The position numbers and the translations under genes are program-made. This document shows, one piece after another, positions 2,205 to 54,083 of a stretch of 64,000 nt of DNA (position 1 is the first letter of the stretch; every line of letters starts with the position of its first letter). The notes beneath the pieces are model-generated. The model was given only the letters and a program-made list of their open reading frames with translations. It made no database searches and was not told where the DNA came from. Origin of the DNA: a virus (taxonomy: Duplodnaviria; Caudoviricetes); IMG/VR virus record IMGVR_UViG_3300047157_000186. One strand, written 5' to 3'.

Positions 2205-4097
2205 ATGGCACTACCACAAGGAATACAAAGAGTTAACTTTTTATCAGCATCCGCTCCAAGTGATGGAATAATACATTCTATTGCACAAAAGGGTGGATAT
2301 CAAGAAATCTATCATCAGAATGATTTCCCTACAATTACATGTTTTGAAAACAGTGATTCAGCATATACTGGTTTCACTTTATCAGATGACATATGGTCTT
2401 CAGGTAGAAGAAGAGCCGGTATGTTGGTTTTTGTAATGAAAACAAAACAATTTTTTAATTTAATTCCAGTAGGTTTTGTTGGAAACGGAGGAGATTTACT
2501 TGAAGCTGATTGGATTAATATGCCTGAGTGGGAAAGAGCATTGAGAATTGATCCTTCAGGAACTTATTGTTCTGAAGGAGCAACTCCAGCAAATGGTTTT
2601 ACTGCTGTACAAAAAACAGCTGCAGATATAGGAATATCTGCAGATCCAATGGGATGTTGGATAGAAACAAGTATCGGAACTAATGGAGTTGATGGAGCAG
2701 ACGGAGCTGATGGAGCACCAGGAGCTGATGGAGCCGATGGAGCACCAGGAGCCAATGGAGTTGATGGAGCTGATGGAGCACCAGGAGCCGATGGAGCCGA
2801 TGGAGCTGATGGTCAAGATTATGAAAAAGTATTAGATTTCTGGTCTGAAGGAGCAGAATTCTATAAAGTAGGTCAAGATTCAGAATATGAAAATAGTGTT
2901 AACAATAGAAATCCTAACTTATATGTATGTAAAGGTGAAACTTATACATTTAGAAGATCTACTGGAGGGCATCCATTAAATATTTTTAGTCAAAACGGTA
3001 ATATCGCTGCAGGAATTGTTAGTGGTAGTTTACCAGTTGTTGAAAATGCAGATTTAGTGTGGAAAGTACCACAAGATGCGTTTGGAACATATACATATGT
3101 GTGTACTGCACATGCAGGTATGACAGGAACAATAACAGTATGTTGTGCTGACGGAACTCCGGCTCCAGATCCAACTGCAACACCAGTTCCTCAACCAGAT
3201 CCAACTGCAACGCCAGTTCCTCAACCGGATCCAACTGCAACGCCAGTTCCAGATCCAACTGCAACACCAGTTCCTGAGCCAACTGCAACACCAGAAGCAC
3301 CTAAAGATGTGTATACATTTGGTGTAAATGTAGCTGACGGTGCAGGAGATATTGAAAATAAAGAAGCATGTGAAGATTTAAAACATCCAATATATACTTC
3401 AGATAAAGCAGATCCAATGCAATTAACTATAGGTGATCGTTTATGGCAAGACGTTGAAACAAGTGTGCCATTTAATGGTAGCGACAGATGGTATGATATA
3501 GGAAATGAAGGAATTCCAAAATTAAAAGTTAAAGTTAGAGGCGGTGAAATAGTATCAGTTGCTGATTGTCCAGGAGATTCTCCGGATCCAACACCGCAAC
3601 CAGATCCAACTGCAACACCGCAACCAGATCCAACTGCAACACCGATTCCACCAACACCTCAACCAACTGATAGTTCAGGTGATGGAAACGGTCCAACACC
3701 AACTGCAACACCAGATAGACCTGAGGATAAATACACAACTACATGGACATTTGAAGAAGCTTCACAAGATCCAACTTATAAAATAGTTTCAGGTACAGGT
3801 AGTAGTAGAAATGAGGAAGAAGATCTAACATCATTTAGAACTCCTGCAGTAAGTAAAGAAACTTCTACTAACCATTACTTATGGATTGTTAGAAGAGACG
3901 GACAACCTATTACTAATTCGGCAGTTGCACGTCTAGAACTAGAAGGTTCTGCTCAACAACATATTGTTAATCAAAATGCTATAAGAGTACAAATACCAAT
4001 TACTCAAGCAGAAGGAGATAGAACATACACTGGAACATTAATTACAAATCCTGAAGGAGGCGAAGGAGGCGAAGGAGAAGGAGATGATCCAAGGTAA
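2205..4097 (+). CDS. Modular virion protein: shared MALPQG N-domain, short collagen, cupredoxin-like domain, PTATP linkers
   Basis: GAD/GAP Gly-X-Y run; GGHP...YVCTAHAGM motif; PDPTATP repeats; N-terminal ~150 aa paralogous to the 4206 ORF. Confidence 0.7.
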   Translation: MALPQGIQRVNFLSASAPSDGIIHSIAQKGGYQEIYHQNDFPTITCFENSDSAYTGFTLSDDIWSSGRRRAGMLVFVMKTKQFFNLIPVGFVGNGGDLLEADWINMPEWERALRIDPSGTYCSEGATPANGFTAVQKTAADIGISADPMGCWIETSIGTNGVDGADGADGAPGADGADGAPGANGVDGADGAPGADGADGADGQDYEKVLDFWSEGAEFYKVGQDSEYENSVNNRNPNLYVCKGETYTFRRSTGGHPLNIFSQNGNIAAGIVSGSLPVVENADLVWKVPQDAFGTYTYVCTAHAGMTGTITVCCADGTPAPDPTATPVPQPDPTATPVPQPDPTATPVPDPTATPVPEPTATPEAPKDVYTFGVNVADGAGDIENKEACEDLKHPIYTSDKADPMQLTIGDRLWQDVETSVPFNGSDRWYDIGNEGIPKLKVKVRGGEIVSVADCPGDSPDPTPQPDPTATPQPDPTATPIPPTPQPTDSSGDGNGPTPTATPDRPEDKYTTTWTFEEASQDPTYKIVSGTGSSRNEEEDLTSFRTPAVSKETSTNHYLWIVRRDGQPITNSAVARLELEGSAQQHIVNQNAIRVQIPITQAEGDRTYTGTLITNPEGGEGGEGEGDDPR

Positions 4098-4205: not shown

Positions 4206-7200
4206 ATGGCTTTACCACAAGGAATACAAAGAGTTAACTTTTTATCTCATTCAGCACCATCTGAAGGTTTAATACATTCTATCGCACAAAAGGGTGGTTA
4301 TCAAGAAATGATAACAGTTGGAGAAAGAAATAGTATACCTCTTTTTGAAAATGGAGTTTCAACATATACAGGTTTTACAATATCGGATGACATTTGGTCA
4401 TCAGGTAGAAGAAGAGTTGGTATGATGATTCATGTTGTAGAAGATAAAAAAATATTTAATTTAATTCCCGTTGGTTTCTTTGGAAACGGTGGTGATTTAG
4501 GAGAAGCTGATTGGTTAGCTTTACCAGAATGGGAAAGAGCATTAAGAATAGATCCTGCAGGAACTTACTGTGCTGCGGGTGCAACTCCAGCAAATGGTTT
4601 TACTGCTGAACAAAAAACGGCTGCAGATATAGGAATATCTAATGATCCTAATGGATGTTGGGTAGAATTATCATTATCTGGAGAAAGCGGAGCTGATGGA
4701 ACTTCAGGTGTAGATGGAGCTGATGGAGCACAAGGAGTAAATGGGAACGATGGAACTTCAGGTGTAGATGGATCCTCAGTAAATTTCATGACTACTTCAA
4801 CTGATATACACTCAAATAATGCAAACGGTACTTTAACAGTAGATCCTGGATTATCTTATATAGGTGGCGAATATATTTCGATTACACAACCATTAGATAT
4901 GACTAATGTACAAATTGCAATAGTAACTGCTTACAGTAATACGCAATTAACATTTTCACACGTATCAAATAACGGTAACTTATTAAATAGTAACGGTCCT
5001 TGGATTATTAATCTAAGTAGTGTACCTGGTCAAACAGGAGCAGATGGAACATCAGGAGTTGATGGAAACGATGGAACTTCTGGTAGTAATGGAACTTCTG
5101 GTATTAATGGACTCGCTGGAACTTCAGGAAATGACGGTGTTAATGGAACATCAGGAGTTGATGGAACATCAGGAAAAGATGGTTCTAATGGAGAAGATGG
5201 TGAAGATGGAGTTAATGGAACTTCTGGTATCAATGGAACTTCTGGTATCGATGGAACTTCTGGTATCGATGGAGTTAGTGGAACTTCTGGTATAGATGGA
5301 ACTTCTGGTATAGATGGAACTTCTGGTATTAATGGAACTTCAGGAGTTGATGGAAACGCTGGAACTTCTGGTGTAGATGGAACTTCTGGAACAGATGGAG
5401 ATTCAATAGAATTTGCAACTTCATTTAATGGTCCACATAGTCTCGGTGAAGACAGAAATCCAGGTAACCAAGATTTAGGTTCGGTAACAGTAGATACTGG
5501 TTTATCATATCAAGGTGGTGAATACGTTATAGTATCTTTAGATGCCAGTCCGGATGATTTTGATATAGTACAAGTAACTTCATATGATAGTTCTACTGGT
5601 GTAATGATGTGGAATAACGTTTATCAAAGTACAGAATCTTCATTTAGTTCTAATTGGAATATCAACTTAACTGGTATACCAGGTATTAAAGGTGATGATG
5701 GAGCTACAGGTGCCGATGGTGTTGATGGTAGAGGAATCTCTTCTATTACAATAGACGACGATGGTAACATGATAATTGTTTATACGAACGGTGATGGTGC
5801 TACTTTACCAAATGTTGGCGGTGAAGATGGAACATCTGGAGTAGATGGAACTTCTGGTGCAGATGGAACTTCAGGAGTTGATGGAACTTCAGGTATTAAA
5901 GGAGAAGATGGAACTTCAGGAATTAATGGTATAGATGGAACTTCAGGTGTAACACCAATAAAAGGTGAAGATTATACTGATGGAACTTCAGGAAAAGACG
6001 GTGCAGATGGAACTTCAGGAGTTGATGGAAACAATGGAACTTCTGGTGCAGATGGAACTTCAGGAGTTGATGGAACTTCAGGTATTAAAGGAGAAGATGG
6101 AACTTCAGGAGTTGATGGTCCACGAGGTGGAGTAGGACCAGGTGTTAATTTTAAAGGAGAAGTTGAAACAGAAGCAAATTTACCGGAAGAAGGCAATCAA
6201 CAAGGTGACGCATATATTGTACAAGCAGATGATAGTTTCTGGATGTGGAACGGAACAAATTGGATTAATGGTGGATCAATACAAGGTGCATCAGGAACTT
6301 CAGGTAAAGATGGAACCTCAGGAGTTGATGGAAACGATGGAACTTCAGGAGTAGATGGAACTTCAGGAAAAGACGGTGAAGATGGAACTTCAGGTAGAGA
6401 TGGCGCAGATGGTACATCTGGAGCTGATGGTGCTGATGGTGATCATGGAACATCAGGTATAAGCGGAACTTCAGGTACAACTCCAATAAAAGGTGAAGAT
6501 TATGTAGATGGAACTTCAGGAAAAGACGGTGAAGATGGAACTTCAGGAGTAAGCGGAACTTCAGGAGTTGATGGAACTTCAGGAGTTGATGGAACTTCAG
6601 GTAGAGATGGAACATCTGGAATTAATGGTACATCAGGTGCAACACCAATAAAAGGTGAAGATTATAACGATGGAACTTCAGGAATTAATGGAACATCAGG
6701 TGTAACACCAATAAAAGGTGAAGATTATGTAGATGGAACTTCAGGAAAAGACGGCGAAGATGGAACTTCAGGTAGAGATGGAACTTCAGGAATTAATGGT
6801 ACATCTGGAATTAACGGTACATCTGGAATTAACGGTGTAAACGGAACTTCAGGTGTAAACGGAACATCTGGAATTAATGGTACATCAGGTATAAGTGGAA
6901 CTTCAGGTGTAACACCAATAAAAGGTGAAGATTATACTGATGGAACTTCAGGAAAAGACGGTGAAAATGGAACTTCAGGTAGAGATGGAACAAGTGGATC
7001 TTCAGGAGTAACTGGTAATCCAGGAACATCAGGTGTAAGTGGAACTTCTGGTGTAAGTGGATCAAGTGGATCTTCAGGAACTGATGGATCGAGCGGATCT
7101 TCGGGAAGAAATGGAACTTCAGGTATAACGCCAATAAAGGGTGAAGATTATGTAGATGGAACTTCAGGAAAAGACGGTGAAGATGGAACTTCTGGTATAG

Positions 7201-8939
7201 ACGGAACATCTGGAACTAATGGTTCTTCTGGATCTTCAGGTGAAGATGGTGGTAGAGGAAATGATGGAAGTTCAGGAACTGATGGAACTTCAGGTAAAGA
7301 TGGATCAAGTGGAACTTCAGGATCAAGTGGTTCTTCAGGAACTAATGGATCAAGTGGAACTAATGGTACATCAGGTACAACACCAATAAAAGGTGAAGAT
7401 TATGTAGATGGTGAAAACGGCACATCAGGTAAAGATGGAACTTCAGGTAGAAATGGTGAAAATGGAACATCAGGATCAAGTGGAACTAACGGAACTTCTG
7501 GTACAGATGGTAGTTCAGGTTCGAGTGGAAGCTCAGGAACTAATGGAAGTTCAGGAACTAATGGTACAAGTGGAACTAATGGAACTAGCGGAAGCTCAGG
7601 TTCATCAGGAACTAACGGAACTTCAGGTATAACACCAATAAAAGGTGAAGATTACACTGATGGAACTTCTGGAAAAGATGGAACTTCTGGAACTTCTGGA
7701 ACTAACGGAACTTCTGGTACAGATGGTAGTTCAGGTTCGAGTGGAAGCTCAGGAACTGATGGAAGTTCAGGAACTGATGGAACTTCTGGTTTAGCTGGAA
7801 CTTCAGGTAAAGATGGAACTTCAGGTATAACACCAATAAAAGGTGAAGATTATACTGATGGAACTTCAGGTAAAGATGGAACTTCAGGTACAAATGGTAC
7901 TTCTGGAACAAATGGTACAAGTGGAACTGACGGTTCTTCTGGAACAAATGGTACAAGTGGAACTGACGGAACAAGTGGAACTGACGGAACTTCTGGTACT
8001 AATGGTAGTTCAGGTACAACTCCAATAAAAGATGAAGATTATACTGATGGAACTTCAGGTAAAGATGGAACTTCAGGAACTGATGGAACTTCAGGTAAAG
8101 ATGGAACTTCAGGAACTGATGGATCAAGTGGAACTGACGGGACTTCAGGAACTGATGGAACTTCAGGAACTGATGGAACTTCAGGAACTGATGGAACAAG
8201 TGGAACTGATGGAACTTCAGGTGTAACACCAATAAAAGGTGAAGATTATACTGATGGAACTTCAGGTAAAAACGGAGACCCTGGAACTTCAGGTACAAAT
8301 GGATCAAGTGGAACTGACGGAACTTCAGGAACTGACGGAACTTCAGGAACTGATGGAACAAGTGGAACTGACGGAACTTCAGGAACAAACGGTACATCAG
8401 GTAAAACACCAGTAAAAGGTGAAGATTATACAAATGGAACTTCAGGAACAAACGGAAGCTCAGGTACAAATGGAACTTCAGGAAGAGATGGTAGTGGAAC
8501 TAGTGGAACTTCAGGTAATTCTGGATCGCGTGGAACAGGATCATGTTGGGAACATATAGCTCTTAATCCAGTTGCAAGAGACGTAACAGTCACAAATAAT
8601 GGATTGCAAAAGGCATTCGTAAAGGTGCCATTTACATTTGAAAATGAAGGATATGAATTAAGATGGATAGAATCATCATATGGTACTGTTAATAACACAG
8701 CTAACGTAGTATATACTTTAAACGGTGTAAGTAGCAACGGTGCAGTAAGTAGCATTGCAACATGGACACATAGTGCTAATAATAAATTTGCAATTTCACC
8801 GGTAATGGAAAAAGTAAATACTGACTCTAAATATTTATATGTTACAGCTTCAAATCAAGACTTTTCAGCAAAAGGATTTACTGTAACCTTAGAGTTTGTG
8901 AACAATGATAGTGACTGTTATGATTACACAGATATGTAA
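4206..8939 (+). CDS. 1577-aa collagen-like fibre protein with Gly-Thr-Ser repeats
   Basis: Hundreds of Gly-X-Y triplets (GTS/GxD/GxN); 12 TP(I/V)K(G/D)EDY interruptions; one GDAYIV..W knot module; globular ends. Confidence 0.8.
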
Positions 8940-8962
8940 TAAAAATAGAATATATAATTAAC

Positions 8963-9280
8963 ATGGTAAAATTATTTGAAGATTTTTTAAATGAGAAGAA
9001 TTTACAAGTCCAAGTTAGAGATCACGTTATTAGATATAGGTTAACATATCAATATGGTAAAGGTGGATTTATAACAATGGCAAGTAATAGCAAAGAATTA
9101 GATAAACAAATAGAGATTGACAATCCAATGGAAATAGGCAAGGCTATTGAAAATTCTATTAATGCGGAGCTTAAAAAACTTAGACAATTATTTACTGTAG
9201 AAGAAGATCATGGTTATCAAGGAGCTGGATATGCTTTTTATATTGTATTTGATGATCTATTAAAATTATTAAATAAGTAA
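8963..9280 (+). CDS. Hypothetical protein with N-terminal KLFEDFLNE motif (possible capsid-targeting signal)
   Basis: ORF track; N-terminus resembles the T4 internal-protein CTS MKTYQEFIAE. Confidence 0.6.
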   Translation: MVKLFEDFLNEKNLQVQVRDHVIRYRLTYQYGKGGFITMASNSKELDKQIEIDNPMEIGKAIENSINAELKKLRQLFTVEEDHGYQGAGYAFYIVFDDLLKLLNK

Positions 9281-9283
9281 ATT

Positions 9284-10825
9284 ATGATAACAGTATTTGG
9301 CGATTTTGAACCAACACCAACACCAACTGCGACATCAATTCCAACAGGTAATTGTCAGCATTCATGGTTTTCAATAGAAGTAGATCAAAATAAGTACGGC
9401 ATACGTTACAAATCAATAGAAACTGGAAATTATGTAACAACACGCCTTACTATGGCAATAAGTACTGCAAATGTATGGCGCTTTGGACAGGAAGGTTATG
9501 TTGTTTCTGTATGTTCACAAGAAGTAGTAAATGTATATGATTTTAATAATAACGCAATCGTCAGTGGTATTGATGGTTTTGAAAGATTAGCTTCAGGTGG
9601 TTCATGTTCTAATGATGGTCCATGTTCTTATGATGCTCCTAACCCAACTGCAACACCAGTACCAACTGCAACACCAGTTCCAACACCCTCACCTACTCAA
9701 ACACCAGATTGTCTATATTATACTTTAGTACCTAGTTCTGGTGAAACAACTGCAACTTATGCTTGGATAGCATGTGGAGGAGGAACTCAATTTAGTACTT
9801 GGACAGGTTTATCTGGAGATCAAAGAATTGTTTGTGCTAAATATGGTACAGTAAGAAAAACTAGTGGAAGCGGATCGATATTTGTTGGTAGTGAATGTGA
9901 ATTACCACCACCTTCTCCAACACCAACTGCAACACCAGTTCCAACATCGAGACCAACTGCAACACCATATCCAACTGCAACACCTAATCCAACTGCTGCA
10001 CCACCTACAGCAACACCTATACCATTTCCAACTGCAACACCAGTTCCAACACCAAACAAAGACTCAGGTGGAGGTTCAGGACCTGTAGAACCAACACCGT
10101 TGCCAACGCCGGTTCCACCAACTGCAACACCATCATATTATGTATATGAATTGAGTTCATGTAATTCTGAACAATCAAATGTTAAAGCTAGATCTAATAC
10201 TCAACTAGTAATAGGAGGCAAATATGAACTTACTGGTTCTAGTTACCAAAGTGGATCACCATGGACTATTTTAAGAACAAGAACTGGTTTTTACGAAACA
10301 TGGATTGGCAATGTAACGAGAGATGCATGTGACAGTGGAGGTGAATGTTTATTAGAAGGAACACAAATTAAATTACCTAATGGAACGTCTACACAAATAG
10401 AAACATTAAAAATAGGTGATACTTTAGCTTCTAATAACATAGGTAATATGCCAAATACTGATAATGTACTTGAATTATTAACATGGGAAGAAACTGATCC
10501 ATCAGTTTCAAGTACAACTACAACTATTGTAGGTATAGAATTAAATACTGTTACTAGAGTTTTAAACTTTAATCAAGGATTATTAACATCAACAGTAGCA
10601 CATTTACATATTATTAAAAGAGATAATTTATGGATGGTTACCCAAGCAATAAATATCAAAGAAGGTGATATCTTTATAGATGATAGTGGTACAGAACATA
10701 TTATCAATTCAATCGAAGATATGTCTGGAACTTTCAATACTTATAAAATAGATGTTGAAGAGAATGATACATATATCGCTAATAATATTATTACACATAA
10801 TAGGAAATTACAGGATCCAGTCTAA
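9284..10825 (+). CDS. Pro/Thr-repeat, Cys-rich protein with C-terminal Hint (intein-like) domain
   Basis: PTATP repeats; Hint block A CLLEGT (nt 10346), block B TVAH, block F YKIDVE, terminal THN (nt 10801) then RKLQDPV. Confidence 0.8.
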   Translation: MITVFGDFEPTPTPTATSIPTGNCQHSWFSIEVDQNKYGIRYKSIETGNYVTTRLTMAISTANVWRFGQEGYVVSVCSQEVVNVYDFNNNAIVSGIDGFERLASGGSCSNDGPCSYDAPNPTATPVPTATPVPTPSPTQTPDCLYYTLVPSSGETTATYAWIACGGGTQFSTWTGLSGDQRIVCAKYGTVRKTSGSGSIFVGSECELPPPSPTPTATPVPTSRPTATPYPTATPNPTAAPPTATPIPFPTATPVPTPNKDSGGGSGPVEPTPLPTPVPPTATPSYYVYELSSCNSEQSNVKARSNTQLVIGGKYELTGSSYQSGSPWTILRTRTGFYETWIGNVTRDACDSGGECLLEGTQIKLPNGTSTQIETLKIGDTLASNNIGNMPNTDNVLELLTWEETDPSVSSTTTTIVGIELNTVTRVLNFNQGLLTSTVAHLHIIKRDNLWMVTQAINIKEGDIFIDDSGTEHIINSIEDMSGTFNTYKIDVEENDTYIANNIITHNRKLQDPV

Positions 10826-10889
10826 TCTCATTGGACATGTAAACAAAACGTTGATATATAATATAACTACTAATTAACGTTATAATTAC

Positions 10890-27804: not shown

Positions 27805-29848
27805 ATGTCATTAGCAGACGGATACGAAAACGAGAAAAATAGAAAAGGAAGTTCAAAGAAAAAAACTACTCCATTCTTAGATGAATTTGGGGAAGATTTA
27901 ACTTTGGCAGCATCTGAAGGTAAATTAGACCCGATTATCGGGAGAGATAAAGAGATTTATAGAATTTGCCAGATATTAGCTCGTAGAAAGAAAAATAATC
28001 CTATTATATTAGGTGACCCAGGAGTTGGTAAAACTGCAATTGTTGAAGCAATTGCTCAACGAATTATTGATAAGAAAGTTGCAAGAGTTTTGATAAACAA
28101 ACGACTTATCTCTATCAACATGACAACTATTGTTGCAGGAACCAAATATCGTGGAGAATTTGAAGAGAGAATGAAAAACATTGTCGAAGAACTTAAAAAC
28201 AATGACAATATTATTGTATTCATCGATGAATTACACACTATTGTTGGTGCAGGTGGAGTGAGTGGTGCATTAGATGCATCAAACATTCTTAAACCAGCTT
28301 TAGCAAGAGGACAAGTTCAATGTATCGGTGCAACAACATTAGATGAATATAGAGAAAACGTTGAAGATGATGGAGCACTTACTCGTAGATTCCAAGAAGT
28401 GTTTGTAGACGCACCATCAGTAGATGATACTATTAATATATTAATGCGTATCAAACATAACTACGAAGAATATCACTCTGTAGAATACACAGATGAAGCA
28501 ATTGACGCATGTGTTAGAATGAGTGATCGTTACATTAAACAACGTGAATTACCTGATAAAGCTATTGATTTATTAGATGAGGCTGGAGCAAGAACACATT
28601 TATTAGAAGTTAAAGTTCCTTCAAGAATCAAAACACTTGAGAAGCAAGCTGAAGAAATAAAATCAGAAAAGAAAGCTGCAGTTGAAAAACAAGATTATGA
28701 AGTTGCAGCGAGACTTAGAGATGATCAAATTTCTATAGAAAGCAGAATATTAAGTGAGACTAAAGATTGGGAAGAATCTCTTAAGAAATCAAAAAGACAA
28801 ATTAATATTTCAGACATAGCTGAAACTATTTCAACACAAACAGGAATTCCTGTTAATAAATTAGGAACTGATGATCTTAAGATGATTAAAGCAATGTCTT
28901 CAGAAATCAAGAATATGATTATCGGCCAAGACAGAGCAGTAGATGCATTATGTAAAGTAATTAAAAGATCTAGAACTGGAGTTGCAAGTCACAAAAAACC
29001 AAGTGGTTCATTTATGTTTTTAGGTCCAACTGGTGTTGGTAAAACTGAAACAGTCAAAGCCCTAGCAGAATATATGTTCGGAGATACTGATGCAATGATT
29101 AGAATTGATATGTCAGAGTATCAAGAAAAGTTTAATGTATCTAGATTGATTGGAGCTCCTCCGGGATATGTAGGTCATGAAGATGGTGGTCAATTAACTG
29201 AAGCAGTAAGACGTAAACCTTATTCTGTAGTCTTATTCGATGAGGTTGAAAAAGCACACCCAGATATTTTCAATACTTGCTTCAAGTCTTAGATGAAGGT
29301 AGATTAACAGATTCTAATGGTAGAGTTGTAGACTTTACAATACACTATCATTGTAATGACATCTAATGTTGGTGCAAGAAAGGTTGCAGACTTTGGAACT
29401 GGTATTGGATTCTCAACCTCAAATCTAATGTTGCAGAAGACAAGCAAAAAGATGGATGGTATTATTAAGAAAGAATTAAAGAATAAATTTAGTCCTGAAT
29501 TTTTAAATAGATTAGATGATATTATTTTATTTGACCAATTACAATCTGAGACATTTTAAAAATTGTAGATATTGAACTTAATAATTTTATTGAAAGAATG
29601 TCAATAGAAGATTATACATTTAAGTTTCTAAACCAGCAAAAGATTTTTAGCTAAAAGAAGGTTACGATCAAGCATATGGTGCAAGACCCATTAAAAGAGC
29701 TATTCAAAGATATGTTGAAGATATAGTTGCTGATGCAATACTAGATGCTTTGACAAAAGGTAAAGAATATACTATTACAAAAAACAAAGACGAAGATAAA
29801 CTAACTTTAGTAAATTATCATATAATAACTACTATAAACACAAGGTAA
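27805..29848 (+). CDS. clpC: ClpC/ClpB-type AAA+ chaperone lacking the N-domain, with UVR M-domain; C-terminal part broken by several indels (29277-29660)
   Basis: Walker A GDPGVGKT and GPTGVGKT; IDELH; [11 protein letters not shown]; [11 protein letters not shown]; RIDMSEY; GYVG; PEFLNRLD; YGARP. The end coordinate depends on manual frame correction. Confidence 0.85.
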
Positions 29849-44215: not shown

Positions 44216-47200
44216 ATGAAGAATATAGGATTTTCAAGAATCGACTTTTGGAGTACCGGAAGTGCACAGAATACATCTAAGGGTACACTTGTAGCTAAGA
44301 ATACTACTTGGGCTACTTCTAAAACTACATCTGAAAATAGAAATACTTCGAGAACTACTGAAAAGGTACGTAATACTAGTCAATCTACAACAACAACGTG
44401 GATAACTACATGGTCAACTAGTAAATCAACTACAACAACTTTCAATACATCTCGTAGTACTAGTACTGTATATGCAACTTCAAGATCAACGACAACATCA
44501 TGGACAACATCATGGAACACATCTAGAGAAACATCTTTAGAAACTGATAGAACTACAACAACAACATGGTCGACTTCTAAAAACACGTCGCAATCAACTG
44601 AGAGAACTACAACTACTACATGGACAACTAGTTGGACAACTAGTCAATCTACATTGTACCCTGTTGAAACTACTTGGAACACAAGTCAATCCACATCTAG
44701 AACGACAACTACAGTATACACTACATATTGGACCACTTCTTGGAATACAAGTAAATCAACGATTACTTCTTATATTACTACATATACAACAACGTGGTCA
44801 ACTACTAGAGCTACGACAACGTCATATAATACAACTTGGACAACTAGTAAATCGACAACTAGATCTACTAGTCGTGACACTACAACAACTTTTAATACAA
44901 ATCAGTCAACGTCTAGAAGCACAACGACTGTATATAATACAACTTGGATTACAAGTCAGACAACGTCTAGAAGTACTGAACATTCAACAATAACTAAATT
45001 TAGTACAAGTCAGTCAACGTCTCATTCGACAACGACCGTATATAATACAACTTGGATTACAAGTCAGACAACAAGTAGAGGAACAGAACATTCGACAACG
45101 ACTACGTTTAATACAAGTCAGTCAACTACTAAATCTACGACGACTACATTTACAACAACATGGTCAACTAGCAAATCAACTTCTAGATCTACTACTAAAT
45201 CGACAACGACAACGTTTAATACAAACCAATCGACAAGTAGATCCACTAAAACAACATGGACTACTACTTGGTCGACTAGTAAATCAACATCTAAAGGAAC
45301 TACAAGAAATACCACAACAACATGGGTAACAAGTAGACCAACTGAACATACAACGACAACTACATTTAATACGACGTGGTCAACTAGTAAATCGACAACT
45401 ACTACTTTTAACACTACATGGAAAACTTCATGGAACACAACTAGAAGTACTAATCGTTCTACAACAACTACATTCAATACTAGTCAATCAACTTCGCATT
45501 CTACAACAACTGCGTGGACAACTACTTGGGTGACAAGTCAAGGAACTAGTAGAGAAACAAGTAAGAATACAACAACTAGATTTATTACTAGTAGAAGTAC
45601 AGAACATGTCACTACTACGACGTTTAATACAACATGGGCAACTAGTAAATCTACTACAACTTCATGGACTACAACTTTTGGTACAACTTTCAATACAACT
45701 AGATCTACTAATAAAAGTACAACGACTACGTTTAATACAACATGGTCAACTAGTAGAGCAACAACAACTTCATGGACAACTTCATGGAACACAACTGTAC
45801 TGACTTCCAGATCTACTTATAAAAACACAACGACTACGTTTAATACAACATGGTCAACTAGCAGATCGACAACGACAACGTTTAATACGACTAGATCAAC
45901 TACGACTACATTTAATACAAGTCAATCAACTAATAAGAATACAACAACTAGTTGGAATACGACTAGATCAACGACAACGACTTGGAACACAACTAGGGCT
46001 ACGACGACTGTATATAATACATCATGGAATACAACTAAGTCAACGACGACTACGTTCAATACAACTAGGTCAACAACAACGACGTTTAATACAAATAAGT
46101 CAACGACAACTGTATTTAATACATCTTGGAATACAACTAGATCTACTACAACTACATTTGCAACCAGTAAATCGACAACAACAACATTTGTAACTAGTAG
46201 AGGTACAGAACATTCGACAACAACAACTTATAATACAACTAGATCTACATCAACTAGTTGGAATACAACTAAGTCAACAACGACTGTGTATAATACTTCA
46301 TGGAATACAACTAAGTCAACGACAACAACGTTTTCAACTAGTAAATCGACGACAACAACGTTTTCAACTAGCCAATCAACTAATAAGAATACGACAACAA
46401 CGTTTAATACGACTAGATCTACATTAACTACATGGATTACAAGTAGATCAACTGAACGTGTGACAACAACAACATGGAATACAACGCGTTCAACAACGAC
46501 TACGTTTAATACAACGCGTTCAACAACGACTACGTTTGCAACTAGTAAATCTACAACGACTACGTTTAATACATCTTGGAATACAAGTAAGAATACAACA
46601 ACAACGTTTGCAACGAGTAAATCCACTAGAACTACTTGGACAACTTCATGGAACACTGCGCGAAATACAACGACAACATGGAATACAACTAAGTCAACGA
46701 CAACTACGTTTGCAACAAGTAGAGGTACATCACGTGCTACGACAACAACATGGATAACTAGTAAGAATACAACGACAACGTTTGCAACTAGTAAATCTAC
46801 AACGACAACGTTTGCAACTAGTAAATCTACGACAACAACATATAAAACAAGTTGGAATACTGCAATATCAACGACAACAACATTTGCCACGTCTAGAGTA
46901 ACTGATAGAAATACTAGTAAATCGACAACAACAACGTTTAATACTGGATACTCTAGATCAACAACTAAATCAACATCATGGAGTACATTAGTTCCTGCAG
47001 ATAATAGTTCAGGTGGAGGTGCAGGTGTTTTGACTTATTGGAACACAACAGTTACATATAACACATCTTTTTCAACCGCGTTATACGTCAATACATCTAG
47101 AGGAACTTCTAGAAACACTGTTGAAGAATGTATAGTTGAAGGAACACTAGTTCATATTGCCGAAGGTGAACAAAGACTAGTTGAAACTTTAGTACATGGT

Positions 47201-47665
47201 CAAAGTATTTTAACTATGGATGGATCGTTTAATGTAGATAACGTTAGTGATTTAAGTCTTATCAGAGAAGAAGAAGTATACACGAATTCATTATCTAATG
47301 AACATACTGCTGTAAATATTTGGAGAGCAGATGTTATAGGAACGGTTAATATAAATGACGGACAATTAAGAACTACCATGGGACACATACACATCATAAA
47401 AAGAGATGGTGAGTGGCAAGCAAGGACAGCGGATCAGTTAGAAATTGGTGATGTTATGTTTAAGCTTGACTATGGAGAATTTTTGATAGAGTCTTTAGAA
47501 ATGGATGAAGTTAATCAATATACAGTTTATAAATTAGACGTAGAACCTAACGATACATTCTTTGCAAATGGAATTTTAACACATAATAAAAAAGATGCAT
47601 TATGTTCACACGAGGATAAATGTACGCGAGGGCATCCATGTGAGGATAGATTTTACCCTTGTTAA
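44216..47665 (+). CDS. 1149-aa Thr-rich repeat protein with C-terminal Hint domain and Cys-rich tail
   Basis: TTT(F/W)NT(S/T)(R/K)ST repeats; Hint CIVEGT (47129), TMGH, YKLDVE, THN (47587), then a 25-aa tail with 4 Cys. Confidence 0.8.
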   Translation: MKNIGFSRIDFWSTGSAQNTSKGTLVAKNTTWATSKTTSENRNTSRTTEKVRNTSQSTTTTWITTWSTSKSTTTTFNTSRSTSTVYATSRSTTTSWTTSWNTSRETSLETDRTTTTTWSTSKNTSQSTERTTTTTWTTSWTTSQSTLYPVETTWNTSQSTSRTTTTVYTTYWTTSWNTSKSTITSYITTYTTTWSTTRATTTSYNTTWTTSKSTTRSTSRDTTTTFNTNQSTSRSTTTVYNTTWITSQTTSRSTEHSTITKFSTSQSTSHSTTTVYNTTWITSQTTSRGTEHSTTTTFNTSQSTTKSTTTTFTTTWSTSKSTSRSTTKSTTTTFNTNQSTSRSTKTTWTTTWSTSKSTSKGTTRNTTTTWVTSRPTEHTTTTTFNTTWSTSKSTTTTFNTTWKTSWNTTRSTNRSTTTTFNTSQSTSHSTTTAWTTTWVTSQGTSRETSKNTTTRFITSRSTEHVTTTTFNTTWATSKSTTTSWTTTFGTTFNTTRSTNKSTTTTFNTTWSTSRATTTSWTTSWNTTVLTSRSTYKNTTTTFNTTWSTSRSTTTTFNTTRSTTTTFNTSQSTNKNTTTSWNTTRSTTTTWNTTRATTTVYNTSWNTTKSTTTTFNTTRSTTTTFNTNKSTTTVFNTSWNTTRSTTTTFATSKSTTTTFVTSRGTEHSTTTTYNTTRSTSTSWNTTKSTTTVYNTSWNTTKSTTTTFSTSKSTTTTFSTSQSTNKNTTTTFNTTRSTLTTWITSRSTERVTTTTWNTTRSTTTTFNTTRSTTTTFATSKSTTTTFNTSWNTSKNTTTTFATSKSTRTTWTTSWNTARNTTTTWNTTKSTTTTFATSRGTSRATTTTWITSKNTTTTFATSKSTTTTFATSKSTTTTYKTSWNTAISTTTTFATSRVTDRNTSKSTTTTFNTGYSRSTTKSTSWSTLVPADNSSGGGAGVLTYWNTTVTYNTSFSTALYVNTSRGTSRNTVEECIVEGTLVHIAEGEQRLVETLVHGQSILTMDGSFNVDNVSDLSLIREEEVYTNSLSNEHTAVNIWRADVIGTVNINDGQLRTTMGHIHIIKRDGEWQARTADQLEIGDVMFKLDYGEFLIESLEMDEVNQYTVYKLDVEPNDTFFANGILTHNKKDALCSHEDKCTRGHPCEDRFYPC

Positions 47666-47724: not shown

Positions 47725-50649
47725 ATGCCTACTACTTATTTTAATACAACATGGTTAACTGCTGGCTCTAGAAATACGTACGTATCTACTACAAAGACTA
47801 GGTCTACTTCCAGATACACGTCATATAATAGGGTAACTTCGAGAAATACGGCGAAGACTACATATTGGAACGTAAGTACAAGTAAGGCAACGACAACATC
47901 ATGGACTACTAAAGTTACTACTTCATGGAACACAACTAGGGGAACAACGACATCGAGAAGCACAAACCAACAAACATCTCATGCAACAACAACTACATGG
48001 AATACAACTAGAGCTACAACGACTACATGGAATACAACTAGAACAACCGAAACAAAATGGAACACAACTAAGTCAACGACTACATCATTTAATACATCTT
48101 GGAATACAACTCGAGCTACAACTACAACGTTTGCAACTAGTAAGGCAACGGCAACAACATTTAGTACAAGTCAGTCAACTGCTAAAGACACAACGACAAC
48201 ATGGAATACAACTAGAGCAACATTAACAACATGGGTCACAAGTAGATCAACTGAACGTGCTACGACAACAACATGGAATACAACTCGAGCTACGACAACA
48301 ACGTTCAATACAACTCGTGCAACGACAACTACATTTGCAACTAGTAAATCGACAACGACTGTATTTAATACATCTTGGAATACAAGTAAGAATACGACTA
48401 CTACATTTGCAACTAGTAAATCCACTAGAACTACTTGGACAACTTCATGGAATACAACTCGAGCTACAACTACAACGTTTAATACAACTCGAGCTACAAC
48501 TACCACGTGGTCTACAAGTCAGTCAACGTCTCATTCGACAACGACTACGTTTGTAACTAGTAAAAATACAACGACTACGTTTAAAACTAGTAAATCAACG
48601 ACTACATCGTATAACACATCTTGGAATACAACTAGGTCAACGACAACAACGTTTAATACTTCCAAGTCAACAACGACTACGTTTATAACTAGTAGGTCAA
48701 CAGAGCGTGTTACTACAACTACATGGGCAACTAGTAAATCTACGACTACTACATTTGCAACAAGTAAATCTACTACAACAACATTTGTAACTAGTAGAGG
48801 AACAGAACATTCCACGACTACTACATTTGCAACTAGTAAATCGACAACAACTACGTTTATAACTAGCCAGTCAACTAGAACTACTTGGACTACAACATGG
48901 TCAACTAATAGATCAACGACAACAACGTTCAATACAACTCGTGCAACGACAACTACATTTAACACAAGTCAATCGACAAGTAAATCCACTAAAACAACAT
49001 GGACAACTTCTTGGAATACTGTCAGAGGAACTAGTAAAGTAACTAGTAAATCGACAACGACTACGTTTAACACAAGTCAATCGACGAGTAGAGCAACTAC
49101 AACAACATGGACTACTACTTGGGCAACATCAAGAAATACAACTAGAGGAACTAGTAAAACGACAACGACTACGTTTAACACAAGTCAATCGACTGAAAGA
49201 GAAACGACTACTGTTTATAACACGTCATGGAACACAACGAGAACTACGATAACTTCATACACTACTTCATGGACTACTTCATGGAATACAAGTAGAGGCA
49301 CATCGAAAACTACAACAACAGTTTATAATACATCATGGTCAACTAGTAAATCAACTGTAACTACATTCAATACTACTTGGATAACAAATCAGAATACAAC
49401 GAGATCTACTTCTAGAACAACAACTACTACTTTTAATACAAGTCAGTCAACTTCTAGAACAACGACTACGTCGTATAACACATCTTGGAACACTACAAGA
49501 TCCACTGAAACTGCATGGACTACTTCATGGGTGACAACGTTTAATACAAACAGGTCAACGTATAAAAATACAACGACTACGTTTACAACAACATGGTCAA
49601 CTAGTAAATCTACAACGACTACGTTTACAACTACGTTCACAACAACGTTTAATACTAATCAGTCAACAAGTAAATCTACAACGACTACATTTAATACAAC
49701 GTGGTCAACTAGTAGAGCAACGACTACGAGTTATACAACTTCATGGACTACTTCATGGAACACAACTAGAGGAACAGAACATGTGACTACTACTGTTTAT
49801 AACACGTCATGGAACACAACTAGATCGACAACTACAGTTTACAATACTTCATGGACAACTTCATGGAACACAACTAGAGGAACAGAACATTCGACTACGA
49901 CTACGTTTACAACAACATGGTCAACTAGTAAATCAACTGTAACTACGTTCAACACTACTTGGACTACGTCATGGAACACAACTTATGGAACGTCTCATTC
50001 AACTACGACAACGTTTAATACGTCTCAGTCTACAAATCATGGAACGTCTCATTCGACAGTAACTATATGGAGTACATCTAGAGGAACTAACAAAGGAACA
50101 GAACACGCAACGACAACTGCATGGACAACGACTTGGGAAACTAGTAGAATTACGAACTATTCACGTACGACATCATGGACTACGCAATATCAAACTAGTC
50201 AGTCAACGGTAACTACATTTAACACAACGTGGTTAACAACATTTAATACCAATCAGTCAACAACAACTGCATGGGTGACATCGTGGGTGACAACATTTAG
50301 TACGTCTCAAACAACGTCTAAAACGACAACGACTACATTTAACACAAGTCACTCGACAACGACAACGTTTAATACGACTAGATCAACTACGACTACATTC
50401 AATACGAATGCAGCTACATCTAAATCGACAACGACAACGTGGTCAACTATTTATAGTGTTACTACTTCGTGGAATACTGCATGGAACACAACAACAACGT
50501 GGAACACGACGAGATCTACAACAAGTGCTATTACTACAACGTGGAGTACAGATTACGAAGTGCAAGAAACTTGGTATTCAACTAACGCACCATTAGATGT
50601 TTATAATACAAATAGACAATGGAGAGTAAACAGTTATAACGGTAACTAG
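47725..50649 (+). CDS. 974-aa Thr-rich repeat protein
   Basis: Same repeat grammar as the 44216 ORF, with no Hint domain. Confidence 0.8.
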   Translation: MPTTYFNTTWLTAGSRNTYVSTTKTRSTSRYTSYNRVTSRNTAKTTYWNVSTSKATTTSWTTKVTTSWNTTRGTTTSRSTNQQTSHATTTTWNTTRATTTTWNTTRTTETKWNTTKSTTTSFNTSWNTTRATTTTFATSKATATTFSTSQSTAKDTTTTWNTTRATLTTWVTSRSTERATTTTWNTTRATTTTFNTTRATTTTFATSKSTTTVFNTSWNTSKNTTTTFATSKSTRTTWTTSWNTTRATTTTFNTTRATTTTWSTSQSTSHSTTTTFVTSKNTTTTFKTSKSTTTSYNTSWNTTRSTTTTFNTSKSTTTTFITSRSTERVTTTTWATSKSTTTTFATSKSTTTTFVTSRGTEHSTTTTFATSKSTTTTFITSQSTRTTWTTTWSTNRSTTTTFNTTRATTTTFNTSQSTSKSTKTTWTTSWNTVRGTSKVTSKSTTTTFNTSQSTSRATTTTWTTTWATSRNTTRGTSKTTTTTFNTSQSTERETTTVYNTSWNTTRTTITSYTTSWTTSWNTSRGTSKTTTTVYNTSWSTSKSTVTTFNTTWITNQNTTRSTSRTTTTTFNTSQSTSRTTTTSYNTSWNTTRSTETAWTTSWVTTFNTNRSTYKNTTTTFTTTWSTSKSTTTTFTTTFTTTFNTNQSTSKSTTTTFNTTWSTSRATTTSYTTSWTTSWNTTRGTEHVTTTVYNTSWNTTRSTTTVYNTSWTTSWNTTRGTEHSTTTTFTTTWSTSKSTVTTFNTTWTTSWNTTYGTSHSTTTTFNTSQSTNHGTSHSTVTIWSTSRGTNKGTEHATTTAWTTTWETSRITNYSRTTSWTTQYQTSQSTVTTFNTTWLTTFNTNQSTTTAWVTSWVTTFSTSQTTSKTTTTTFNTSHSTTTTFNTTRSTTTTFNTNAATSKSTTTTWSTIYSVTTSWNTAWNTTTTWNTTRSTTSAITTTWSTDYEVQETWYSTNAPLDVYNTNRQWRVNSYNGN

Positions 50650-51732: not shown

Positions 51733-52752
51733 ATGAGAATATTATTTTATGCGGGCTATCAAAAGAATAAATTTGATGGTGATACAAATGAAGGATTAGC
51801 AGGAACTGAAATTGCTATAATTAATATAGCCGAAGAGATGGTTAAATTTGGTTATAAGGTTGTGGTTTCTGGTGAAGTAAAAGATTCTGGTTTAATTAAT
51901 GGAGTAGAATGGATATCAACACATGAATTACATGAAAAATATTTTGATCAGTTTGATTATATTATATCTGCAAGTTATATTCATTTTTTAAAAGAGTTTG
52001 AAAAATATTCAGCAAAGAAAGTATTTTGGGCACATAATACACATCATCACCCATGGTGGAATCACGAAGTGTTAGAAGACGCAAACCTTTTAACACAACA
52101 AGTTGATCATACAATTTGTTTGACTAATTGGCATAAGAATCACTGGGCACATACATATAATATACCTTTAAATAAAATCTCGGTGATTGGTAATGCCATT
52201 GATCCTTCAACATTTAGTGGTACTCCTGAAAAAGTTAAAGGTAAATTCATATATAGTTCTGCACCCGAACGTGGCTTATTGGAATTATTAAAAAACTGGC
52301 CAAAGATAAAAACTATAATGCCACATGCAACACTAGACATTTATTCTCCTGGATATTCTATAGCAAATCATACTGACTATTCATTTAATAAGTTTAAAGA
52401 AGTAACATGTCACGGTAGTGTAGATCAAAAAACATTACATAATGCCATGCTACGTGCAGAATATTGGTGTTATATAACTGATTATGAAGAAACATATTGT
52501 ATAACTGCACTTGAAATGCAATATGCCAAAGTATTACCTATTGTTACTAAAGTTGCTGCATTAAAAGAAACTGTAAATAGTGGAGTTATCTTAGAAAGAA
52601 ATGAAACAAATTGGAATCAGGCTATACAAATACTAGGTACACTAAGTAGTGGACTTAAGGATAAATCAATTAATGATGCATATAAATGGTCTAAACAACA
52701 AACATGGAATGTTAGATCATATGATTGGAAAAACATATTAGAATCTATATGA
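51733..52752 (+). CDS. GT4-family (GT-B) glycosyltransferase
   Basis: GLAGTE, IGNAID, YSSAPERGL, ETYCI.ALE.Q. Start moved to ATG 51733 because the tracked GTG lies inside the terminator. Confidence 0.8.
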   Translation: MRILFYAGYQKNKFDGDTNEGLAGTEIAIINIAEEMVKFGYKVVVSGEVKDSGLINGVEWISTHELHEKYFDQFDYIISASYIHFLKEFEKYSAKKVFWAHNTHHHPWWNHEVLEDANLLTQQVDHTICLTNWHKNHWAHTYNIPLNKISVIGNAIDPSTFSGTPEKVKGKFIYSSAPERGLLELLKNWPKIKTIMPHATLDIYSPGYSIANHTDYSFNKFKEVTCHGSVDQKTLHNAMLRAEYWCYITDYEETYCITALEMQYAKVLPIVTKVAALKETVNSGVILERNETNWNQAIQILGTLSSGLKDKSINDAYKWSKQQTWNVRSYDWKNILESI

Positions 52753-54083
52753 AAATAGATAAAATTTATATTATAAGCTTGAACGCTGGAGATCCAAGCA
52801 TTCAAAGAAGTATTGCCGAGAGGGTAGATCAACTTGGTATGCCATATTCTGTAGCGTGGGAAATAGTTCAAGGTTTTGATGGAACTTCAGGCAATTTATT
52901 AGATGGACACAGTGTATATAATTTATGGAATTTAGGATCTGATTCATGGAATGATTGGTGGAAAAGAGATGTTACTGGCGGAGAAGCAGGTTGTGCAATT
53001 AGTCACTTAAATATATGGAAAAATATAATAGAAGACAATATCAATTGTGCATTAATACTAGAAGATGATTTTGTTTCAGTAGCTCCACTTACAAATCCAG
53101 TTATTCCAAACACAGAATGGGATATTGCATTTTTAGGTAGAAATGCTATATGTCCTAAGGATGAAAAAAGAATTGATGTAAGTAATAAATGGGTAACAGC
53201 ACTTAGTAGTTATAATACACATGCATATGTAATTAAAAGAGACGCTGCGAAAACGCTAGTCAATGATTACAACTTTCAACAAAATCTAATTGCGCCCGAT
53301 GAATTCTTAACGGCAACATATACAGATCATAGAAGACAAGATATTAATATACTGTTTCCACCAAAACTTAAAGCGATAGCTCCAGTTAATAATTGGATAG
53401 AACAAAATAGACCACACGAAAAATCCACGACAGAACCAAATGATGCCAATATTAATTTATTGAAAAAACAACCTTATTTCGAAATACTAGATGACAGTGA
53501 TTGGGATTCATGGAAATCAAAGTATGTAAACGAAACAGTGGCTAAGGGTGAATATGATTTAATGATAGATGATATAGGAAATAATATATATGAATTTCCA
53601 TTATTTACCGAAAAGTTCTGTAAAGAAGCAGTTGCTTTAGCAGAGGTTATGAATAAGTGGACAAAAGATAGACATGAATTTTATCCAACAAATGATGTCT
53701 TATTACCAGAAATAGGATTAGATAATATTTATAATAGAGTTATAAAAGAAATAGTTTCCCCACTTTGTATACATTTATGGGAATTAGAAGGTGCAGGTTG
53801 GGATAATATGAATACCGAAAACTTTATGGTAAGATATACTACTGATAGACAATCTCATTTAAGTTTACATCATGACTTTAGTCATATTACAATGGTAGTA
53901 AAATTAAATGATGAGTTTGATGGTGGCGGCACGTGGTTTCCAAAATATAAAATATTAGCAAATCCAAAATTAGTAGGTACTGCAACTATTCACCCTGGAA
54001 TGATCACACATAAACATGGTGCCAGACCAATACATAGTGGGAAAAGATACATCAACGTATCATTTATGAGAAAGAATAATTAA
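52749..54083 (+). CDS. Fusion of GT25 (collagen/LOS galactosyltransferase-like) and PLOD-type lysyl hydroxylase domain
   Basis: N: IYIISL, GEAGCAISH..IW, LILEDD, HAYVI. C: FPLFTEKFC, PTND, NFMVRY, SLHHD, GGGTWF, HPG.ITH.H, GKRYI.VSF. Confidence 0.8.
   Translation: MKIDKIYIISLNAGDPSIQRSIAERVDQLGMPYSVAWEIVQGFDGTSGNLLDGHSVYNLWNLGSDSWNDWWKRDVTGGEAGCAISHLNIWKNIIEDNINCALILEDDFVSVAPLTNPVIPNTEWDIAFLGRNAICPKDEKRIDVSNKWVTALSSYNTHAYVIKRDAAKTLVNDYNFQQNLIAPDEFLTATYTDHRRQDINILFPPKLKAIAPVNNWIEQNRPHEKSTTEPNDANINLLKKQPYFEILDDSDWDSWKSKYVNETVAKGEYDLMIDDIGNNIYEFPLFTEKFCKEAVALAEVMNKWTKDRHEFYPTNDVLLPEIGLDNIYNRVIKEIVSPLCIHLWELEGAGWDNMNTENFMVRYTTDRQSHLSLHHDFSHITMVVKLNDEFDGGGTWFPKYKILANPKLVGTATIHPGMITHKHGARPIHSGKRYINVSFMRKNN

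Follow-up and report, generated by a model that had tools for sequence, protein, structure and literature searches.

A-type bacterial intein-like (BIL) domains are defined by a C-terminal His-Asn and by the lack of a nucleophile at the residue that follows it, position +1 (PMC4031507; PMC7765530). They form a thioester at their first residue, Cys1, cyclise the C-terminal Asn and give mostly cleavage products; ligation can follow if the C-flank, once released, attacks this thioester through its free amine (PMC4031507; PMC7664689; PMC7765530). The underlying work (Amitai, 2003; Dassa, 2004; Aranko, 2013) is taken here from the summaries in PMC4031507 and PMC7765530. The BIL2 domain of Tetrahymena thermophila BUBL1 joins its N-flank by an isopeptide bond to a Lys of the C-flank or of other proteins, independently of ATP (PMC8616854, citing Chiarini 2021). 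Here we analyse the Hint domain that closes one predicted protein, P0001, encoded in a stretch of 64,000 nucleotides (the window) from a virus of the Caudoviricetes (IMG/VR record IMGVR_UViG_3300047157_000186). From sequence comparisons, this terminal Hint is probably an active, self-excising, A-type BIL-like module, optional in the C-terminal tail of a modular protein with Pro/Thr linkers. The host tail is short, Gly-rich and acidic, and the protein itself is probably a surface or adhesin protein.

The Hint domain of P0001 and its closest relatives

Translated codon by codon, positions 10346-10825 read CLLEGT...STVAHLH...NNIITHN, followed by RKLQDPV and the stop. This confirms what an earlier note had read from the letters of the same interval, a 152-residue Hint with Cys1, a block-B TxxH motif and a terminal His-Asn, i.e., Cys355, TVAH and His505-Asn506. 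The Arg that it placed at +1 and the shortness of the tail also hold; the length has to be corrected, as seven residues follow Asn506 in total, Arg included, and not Arg plus seven. The N-terminal nucleophile and the [TS]xxH of block B that mark the HINT superfamily are thus both found (Cys355 and T437-V-A-H440).

A search of PDB sequences with the single sequence gave as best match the DnaX mini-intein (E=0.079). The profile of 101 family sequences, searched against the same sequences, had its two best hits in BILs, Tetrahymena BUBL1 BIL2 (4.6e-17) followed by that of Clostridium thermocellum (2lwy; 8.9e-12), and reached no intein below 2.6e-8. The match is therefore far above chance, but only because relatives were brought in by the profile; the single sequence is weak. 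The AlphaFold2 model of the Hint, built on the 101-sequence alignment, had a predicted local distance difference test score (pLDDT) of 92.2. With VIA-align it superposed on BIL2 with Z 19.5 (root-mean-square deviation 1.8 A over 138 residues) and on 2lwy with Z 18.8 (1.6 A over 132 residues), while mini-inteins reached Z 17-18 and Hedgehog 1at0 Z 17.0. The solved Hint chains aligning at Z>=8 numbered 81, with 19.5 as the top value, and the first two Foldseek matches were again BIL2 (E 1.6e-8) and then 2lwy, at probability 1.00. The C-terminal domain of P0001 is thus certainly a Hint fold. Its closeness to the A-type BILs is supported by profile and fold, mainly by the profile scores, given that the fold Z values of BILs, inteins and Hedgehog lie within about 1-2 units of each other.

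With 2lwy the domain shares the mini Hint fold, Cys1, the block-B His, the terminal His-Asn (His505-Asn506), a +1 residue that is not a nucleophile (Arg507) and the absence of an endonuclease. Like other A-type BILs it is found in a variable, non-conserved protein, here as 152 residues without insert or homing endonuclease on shuffled cargo. In contrast to them, the Hints of the P0001 family are always placed at the extreme C-terminus with a tail of 1-10 residues, a Gly run before and a conserved Lys after; they are carried by phage proteins resembling fibres or adhesins, sometimes as tandem arrays, and P0001 does not reach the threshold of PT-HINT. BIL2, the top match by profile and fold, shares an N-flank ending in small residues, and its reported acceptor is a lysine; it differs in being eukaryotic, in standing between two ubiquitin-like domains and in using a Lys of a folded C-flank or of other proteins (PMC8616854). 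Sequence identity between BIL2 and the Hint of P0001 is only about 20%, and any conjugation by P0001 would be conjectural.

The Hedgehog domain (Hog, 1at0) has the same order of cargo and then Hint, and a thioester at the cargo C-terminus. However, Hog carries out the N-S acyl shift only (PMC7664689) and is followed by a sterol-recognition region, with no need for a C-terminal Asn. P0001 has the invariant His-Asn and no such adduct-recruiting region. The assignment of the earlier note to a Hedgehog or A-type BIL architecture consequently survives in its BIL half, by profile and fold, and is lost in its Hedgehog half. The PT-HINT domains of polymorphic toxins (PF07591; PMC3482391) are also BIL-like Hints in long, filamentous, variable proteins, placed just before a C-terminal toxin domain that they free. 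In P0001 no domain follows. Peptidase_S74 chaperones share the role of self-cleaving C-terminal module, in phage fibres and endosialidases, with a chemistry (a Ser-Lys dyad) and a fold unrelated to those of Hint; P0001 had no match to Peptidase_S74 (PF13884) at E<=1.

Conserved residues and Hint-less orthologues

An exhaustive HMMER search, with the matches clustered at the 50% identity level, gave 668 clusters of relatives at E<=1e-3, of which 198 also passed E<=1e-10, and the match was nearly always at the very end of the protein. Residues were counted over 156 full-length domains and in the alignment of 101 sequences, whose mean column identity was about 40% among diverse sequences. Four columns of the alignment were invariant, Cys355, His440, His505 and Asn506, and the position three residues before the block-B His was either Ser (52/101) or Thr (49/101). 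All 156 full domains had Cys1, and all but one had His-Asn (155/156). Only 8/156 had Cys, Ser or Thr at +1, the usual residues there being Lys, Ala, Val, Ile, Leu and Arg. With the same hidden Markov model (HMM), bacterial genomes also yielded 25 genuine inteins, hosted by UvrD/PcrA-like helicases, and in these 25 the +1 residue was Ser or Cys without exception.

In the flanks, Lys occupied +2 in 105/156 domains, and 132/156 had it at either +1 or +2 (it makes up 2.1% of the cargo), leaving about 15% of members without it. The tails after Asn had a median of 7 residues and 30 or fewer in 147/156, and none of the 156 ended at Asn itself; many stop at a Lys placed directly after HN or one residue further on (e.g., IK). 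From +3 onwards Asp and Glu accounted for 23.5% of tail residues versus 8.1% in the cargo, so that the tails are not random leftovers. On the other side, about half of the family had Gly at -1 to -3. At -1 Gly is the family norm (44/101), where P0001 has Glu.

We found nine homologues with cargo domains D1 and D3 of P0001 (see Table 1) and no Hint (P0008, P0013, P0015, P0018, P0022, P0023, P0025, P0029 and P0030), ending in ...C-GGGK-DG-LEEEPR, ...C-EGGKAGLKEAP, ...CPPSGGGGGKPGDGFEEEIAP and similar sequences. Two of these Hint-less proteins, P0008 and P0025, are positional orthologues of the window gene. The gene order was conserved among the window and loci L005, L110 and L112, with an open reading frame (ORF) of about 105 residues, this gene, an N-acetylglucosamine (GlcNAc) transferase gene and later genes; the small ORF upstream of P0025 is partial at the contig end. 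Downstream of P0008, P0025 and the window gene alike, the run consisted of the GlcNAc transferase, a 273-residue protein, a 241-residue protein, HtrL_YibB and an epimerase.

When the Hint was cut out in silico from P0001, P0003, P0004, P0005 and P0010, the remainders aligned end to end with the Hint-less proteins. The resulting ends were of the kind ...AC-DSGGE|RKLQDPV and ...LC-EGGKDE|RKIEEEEPR, and the only extra columns were those of 'RK'. The inserted unit thus appears to be the segment from Cys to His-Asn plus x-Lys. Since the excised proteins are colinear with the Hint-less orthologues, it is the protein's own C-terminal end that follows Asn, and this makes re-ligation of the flanks, as in A-type BILs, a live option. 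By these comparisons the Hint is an optional module of the P0001 gene lineage. In the D3 tree four Hint-bearing proteins fell in one clade (support 95/95) and the fifth, P0010, stood on a long branch among Hint-less ones. The most parsimonious reading of this tree would be two changes of Hint state, and the long branches also allow a single origin. An orthologue search for a second Hint protein of the window, P0212, found three loci only, all three with the Hint, and the result on presence and absence therefore rests on one cargo lineage.

Proposed reaction and its alternatives

If the domain follows the chemistry known from inteins and A-type BILs, Cys355 would attack the carbonyl of Glu354 in an N-S acyl shift assisted by His440, and the cargo would be left on a thioester. 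Asn506, assisted by His505, would then cyclise to a succinimide and cut the bond to Arg507. The thioester could be resolved by water or a cellular thiol, giving a cargo that ends at Glu354, or by an amine of the freed RKLQDPV (the alpha amine of Arg507 or the epsilon amine of Lys508), in which case the tail would be re-attached. By either route the mature protein would lack the 152-residue Hint. Plain cleavage would be, roughly speaking, the leading outcome at a little less than an even chance, with re-ligation of the tail behind it as a substantial possibility and the remainder left to other outcomes. The C-terminal junction seems to be in use, and not the N-terminal one alone as in Hedgehog, because Asn is invariant and no member ends at it, and because Lys is conserved just after Asn in front of a tail homologous to the natural end of the orthologues. 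Cleavage is expected to be common because the +1 nucleophile is absent and because this is the published behaviour of BILs. The earlier note had held that such domains cleave or ligate rather than splice; the non-nucleophilic +1 agrees with that, and the wording is too firm for a domain whose flanks are colinear with Hint-less tails.

Several points weigh against an active, self-excising module. Taken alone, P0001 is below every Pfam Hint threshold (Intein_splicing, PF14890, 19.6 bits vs a cutoff of 35.8; PT-HINT, 15.1 vs 27.7; Hint_2, PF13403, 13.7 vs 28.4), and falls just short of TIGR01443 (14.9 vs 15.6). The activity of the family is deduced from conservation alone. The Glu at -1 of P0001 could slow the first step. 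Cleavage at the N-terminal junction alone would leave the invariant Asn and the conserved Lys unexplained, and clean splicing would make the lack of a +1 nucleophile odd. What a phage gains from a domain that removes itself is not explained either, and the existence of Hint-less orthologues would also allow it to be a neutral passenger.

By analogy with BIL2, the combination of Gly run, Hint and x-Lys may be an ATP-independent, ubiquitin-like conjugation device of phages, in which the Hint thioester would pass the C-terminus of a fibre or adhesin to Lys508 of its own tail or to a lysine of another virion or host-surface protein. The isopeptide may be made during virion assembly or attachment, as BIL2 does on ubiquitin-like domains in Tetrahymena. 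We regard this extension as rather unlikely.

Two more specific reactions would share the thioester and differ in what takes it, and both seem to us quite improbable, to a similar degree. The first, proposed by the earlier note, is a transfer in the style of Hedgehog, in which an external nucleophile (a virion-protein Lys, a glycan or a lipid) takes the thioester of Cys355 and the cargo becomes anchored by its C-terminus. BIL2, the closest solved relative, does attach its N-flank to other proteins at their lysines, with no need of ATP (PMC8616854), the Gly-rich N-flanks recall the C-termini of ubiquitin-like proteins, glycosyltransferase genes are directly downstream, and P0001 has neither the N-terminal part of about 470 residues of its orthologues nor a recognisable virion-attachment domain. 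However, the Hint is followed by seven residues only and by no adduct-recruiting region, no acceptor partner was identified, the invariant Asn is not needed for pure transfer, and C-terminal anchoring cannot be essential for a cargo that also occurs without the Hint.

The second is an isopeptide 'lariat' splice: the epsilon amine of Lys508 at +2 would attack the thioester, Asn506 would then cyclise, and a bond between Glu354 and the epsilon amine of Lys508 would hold the tail. The enrichment of Lys at +1 or +2, the members that stop at this Lys, the alignment in which 'RK' goes with the Hint and not with the host tail, and BIL2, which bonds to a C-flank Lys in exactly this manner (PMC8616854), all speak for it. 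Against this, the scheme is pure inference, the Lys is missing in those members already mentioned and could instead serve catalysis or solubility, and AlphaFold2 modelled the tail with low confidence (last block pLDDT about 55).

A catalytically silent Hint fold, retained at the protein end as a structural or binding domain, is very improbable: tandem arrays do contain degenerate copies, with Gly for Cys in the first unit, but the invariance of Cys1, the block-B His and His-Asn across 101-156 diverse sequences, at the mean column identity given above, is a pattern to be expected of chemistry and not of a scaffold. Splicing as a canonical class-1 intein has practically no chance, being contradicted by the sequence itself, as +1 is Arg507, Cys, Ser or Thr there is an exception in the family and the rule in true inteins, an endonuclease is lacking and the insertion is in a variable tail instead of a conserved active site, even if element-free alleles colinear with both flanks exist and 30/73 members match Pfam Intein_splicing.

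The literature that we searched for Hint C-terminal domains in phages or tail fibres contained only ordinary inteins in genes for terminase, helicase, ribonucleotide reductase and similar proteins, and no description of the terminal architecture of Gly run, Hint and x-Lys. The Hint fold and the type of reaction are already known, i.e., this is not categorically new, and one deposited phage record already labels the module 'intein domain'. Pfam overlooks most cases of this terminal architecture on phage surface proteins. What is new here is that positional orthologues without the Hint exist and are colinear with its flanks, that a Thr-rich fibre bears a second copy (see below), that tandem arrays occur elsewhere and that BIL2, with its isopeptide, is the nearest solved relative. 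If active, these domains would form a very large, mostly virus-borne Hint branch, with thioester chemistry at work on the termini of phage surface proteins, and would provide a maturation or coupling step for phage fibres that is absent from the searched literature. Taken together, the invariant Asn and the conserved Lys point to an outcome found neither in Hedgehog nor in classical inteins. As sister phages have this gene with or without the domain, a clean comparison is possible, and small terminal Hints that yield C-terminal thioesters or lysine ligation would be useful tools for protein engineering.

Carriers of the module, second copy and other genes of the window

Among 73 members the cargo recognised by Pfam was BACON (16), DUF5977 (5), collagen (5), VWA (4) and fn3 (3), plus PKD and Big_9. 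The Hint itself was visible to Pfam at E<=1e-3 as Intein_splicing in the 30 members mentioned and as PT-HINT (PF07591) in 9/73, the best of the latter at 2.1e-13. The family had 47 loci in IMG/VR, several on contigs of 235-330 kb; the gene of a close relative, P0017, is surrounded by very large structural genes on a contig of 255 kb that also encodes gp32 and UvsW. In deposited phages the module was found in tail-fibre neighbourhoods, on a 478-residue 'putative tail fiber protein' of Erwinia phage pEa_SNUABM_5 and on a 'large intein domain protein' of phage NCTB. Flavobacterium chromosomes encode proteins made of DUF5977, a Gly run, Hint and a YK-tail, and at locus L057 one of them has as neighbours a baseplate-like gene and the gene of a tail fibre with a Peptidase_S74 cap. 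There (L057:4760-9791, Flavobacterium sp. LPB0248) a DUF5977 protein without Hint, one with DUF5977, Gly run and Hint, and the Peptidase_S74 fibre lie side by side. By its gene content this is a prophage-like fibre module with two different, putatively self-cleaving, C-terminal caps.

The first of two Thr-rich proteins of about 1000 residues in the window also ends in a Hint of this family, the second of the window (family HMM 6.9e-36), which shares 37% identity with that of P0001. Its Cys-rich tail, KKDALCSHEDKCTRGHPCEDRFYPC, was near-identical in L012, L107 and L108, and L109 had a related, more diverged Cys-rich tail. The partner Thr-rich gene (47725-50649) is without a Hint. Two to four Hints, separated by 1-4 residues in the pattern HN-[KR]-x-C, close many viral proteins of about 900 residues (in IMG/VR, loci L034, L036, L037, L046, L049 and L051). 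P0113 has eight in a row, and a protein of an archaeal (Thermoplasmata) metagenome-assembled genome, L064, about ten. In several of the viral arrays the first unit is degenerate, starting with Gly in place of Cys. Such tandem arrays would be easier to understand for a self-removing domain than for one with a stoichiometric structural role.

Table 1. Features of the P0001 gene and of the second Hint, in window coordinates.
Feature	Position	Strand	Remarks
Whole ORF P0001, 513 residues	9284..10825	+	Three small Cys-containing domains on Pro/Thr linkers, Hint, 7-residue tail
Cargo domain D1 (residues 22-117)	9347..9634	+	Conserved beta-sandwich with four conserved Cys (alignment and AlphaFold2)
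Pro/Thr linker 1 (APNPTATPVPTATPVPTPSPTQTP)	9635..9706	+	
Cargo domain D2 (residues 142-205)	9707..9898	+	Shufflable module; not in closest orthologue P0003
Pro/Thr linker 2	9899..10132	+	
Cargo domain D3 (residues 284-354)	10133..10345	+	C-terminal ...ACDSGGE is the N-flank of the Hint
Hint (A-type BIL-like), Cys355-Asn506, 152 residues	10346..10801	+	No endonuclease insert
Cys355 (Cys1), predicted thioester nucleophile	10346..10348	+	156/156 family domains, 101/101 in the alignment
Block B, T437-V-A-H440	10592..10603	+	His invariant, 101/101
His505-Asn506, predicted succinimide-forming C-terminal junction	10796..10801	+	HN in 155/156
C-flank RKLQDPV (Arg507 = +1, Lys508 = +2)	10802..10822	+	LQDPV homologous to the natural C-terminus of Hint-less orthologues
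Stop codon of P0001	10823..10825	+	
Second Hint, same family	47129..47587	+	End of the 1149-residue Thr-rich fibre ORF 44216-47665
25-residue Cys-rich C-flank of second Hint (KKDALCSHEDKCTRGHPCEDRFYPC)	47588..47662	+	Conserved in related phages

Cargo domain D1 (about 95 residues) is common to many metagenomic proteins with or without Hint and was modelled by AlphaFold2 with pLDDT 87.8; PDB searches gave no relative for it, the best values being E 0.48 with Foldseek and Z 4.4 with the wide VIA search, and residues 140-354 of P0001 had no usable match in the ESM Atlas. No PHROG, Pfam or NCBIfam family names the cargo of P0001, and PHROGs and NCBIfam had none for the orthologues either. Megablast of positions 8900-13000 gave no matches among deposited phages, and tblastn of P0001 matched only two distant deposited phages, in three records. 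The label 'fibre' of the earlier note has support only in the gene neighbourhood, i.e., collagen-like proteins with tail-fibre PHROG matches and a baseplate-connector-like domain, and we have not kept it for a protein that belongs to no PHROG or Pfam family by its cargo and lacks the N-terminal part of its orthologues.

Cargo modules are shuffled at the Pro/Thr linkers across the orthologues, the Hint meanwhile being 92% identical. Relative to its positional orthologues the window gene has gained D2. These orthologues (L005:1205-3835, L110:6001-8466 and L112:577-3012) carry the N-terminal region of about 470 residues (MALSVFAHDEEC...), seen for example in P0003 and P0008, that is absent from the window gene.

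Other genes of the window also deserve mention. The collagen-like proteins at 2205-4097 and 4206-8939 have their first 150 residues or so in common and resemble paralogous fibres built on a shared attachment domain. Near several collagen-like genes, at 52725-54083, there is a fusion of Glyco_transf_25 with an OGFOD2-like domain (2-oxoglutarate oxygenase). Finally, positions 27805-29292 contain the gene of an FtsH-like ATP-dependent protease (phrog_4871, E 1e-183); a counterpart with 54% identity is found on an uncultured phage record of 642 kb.

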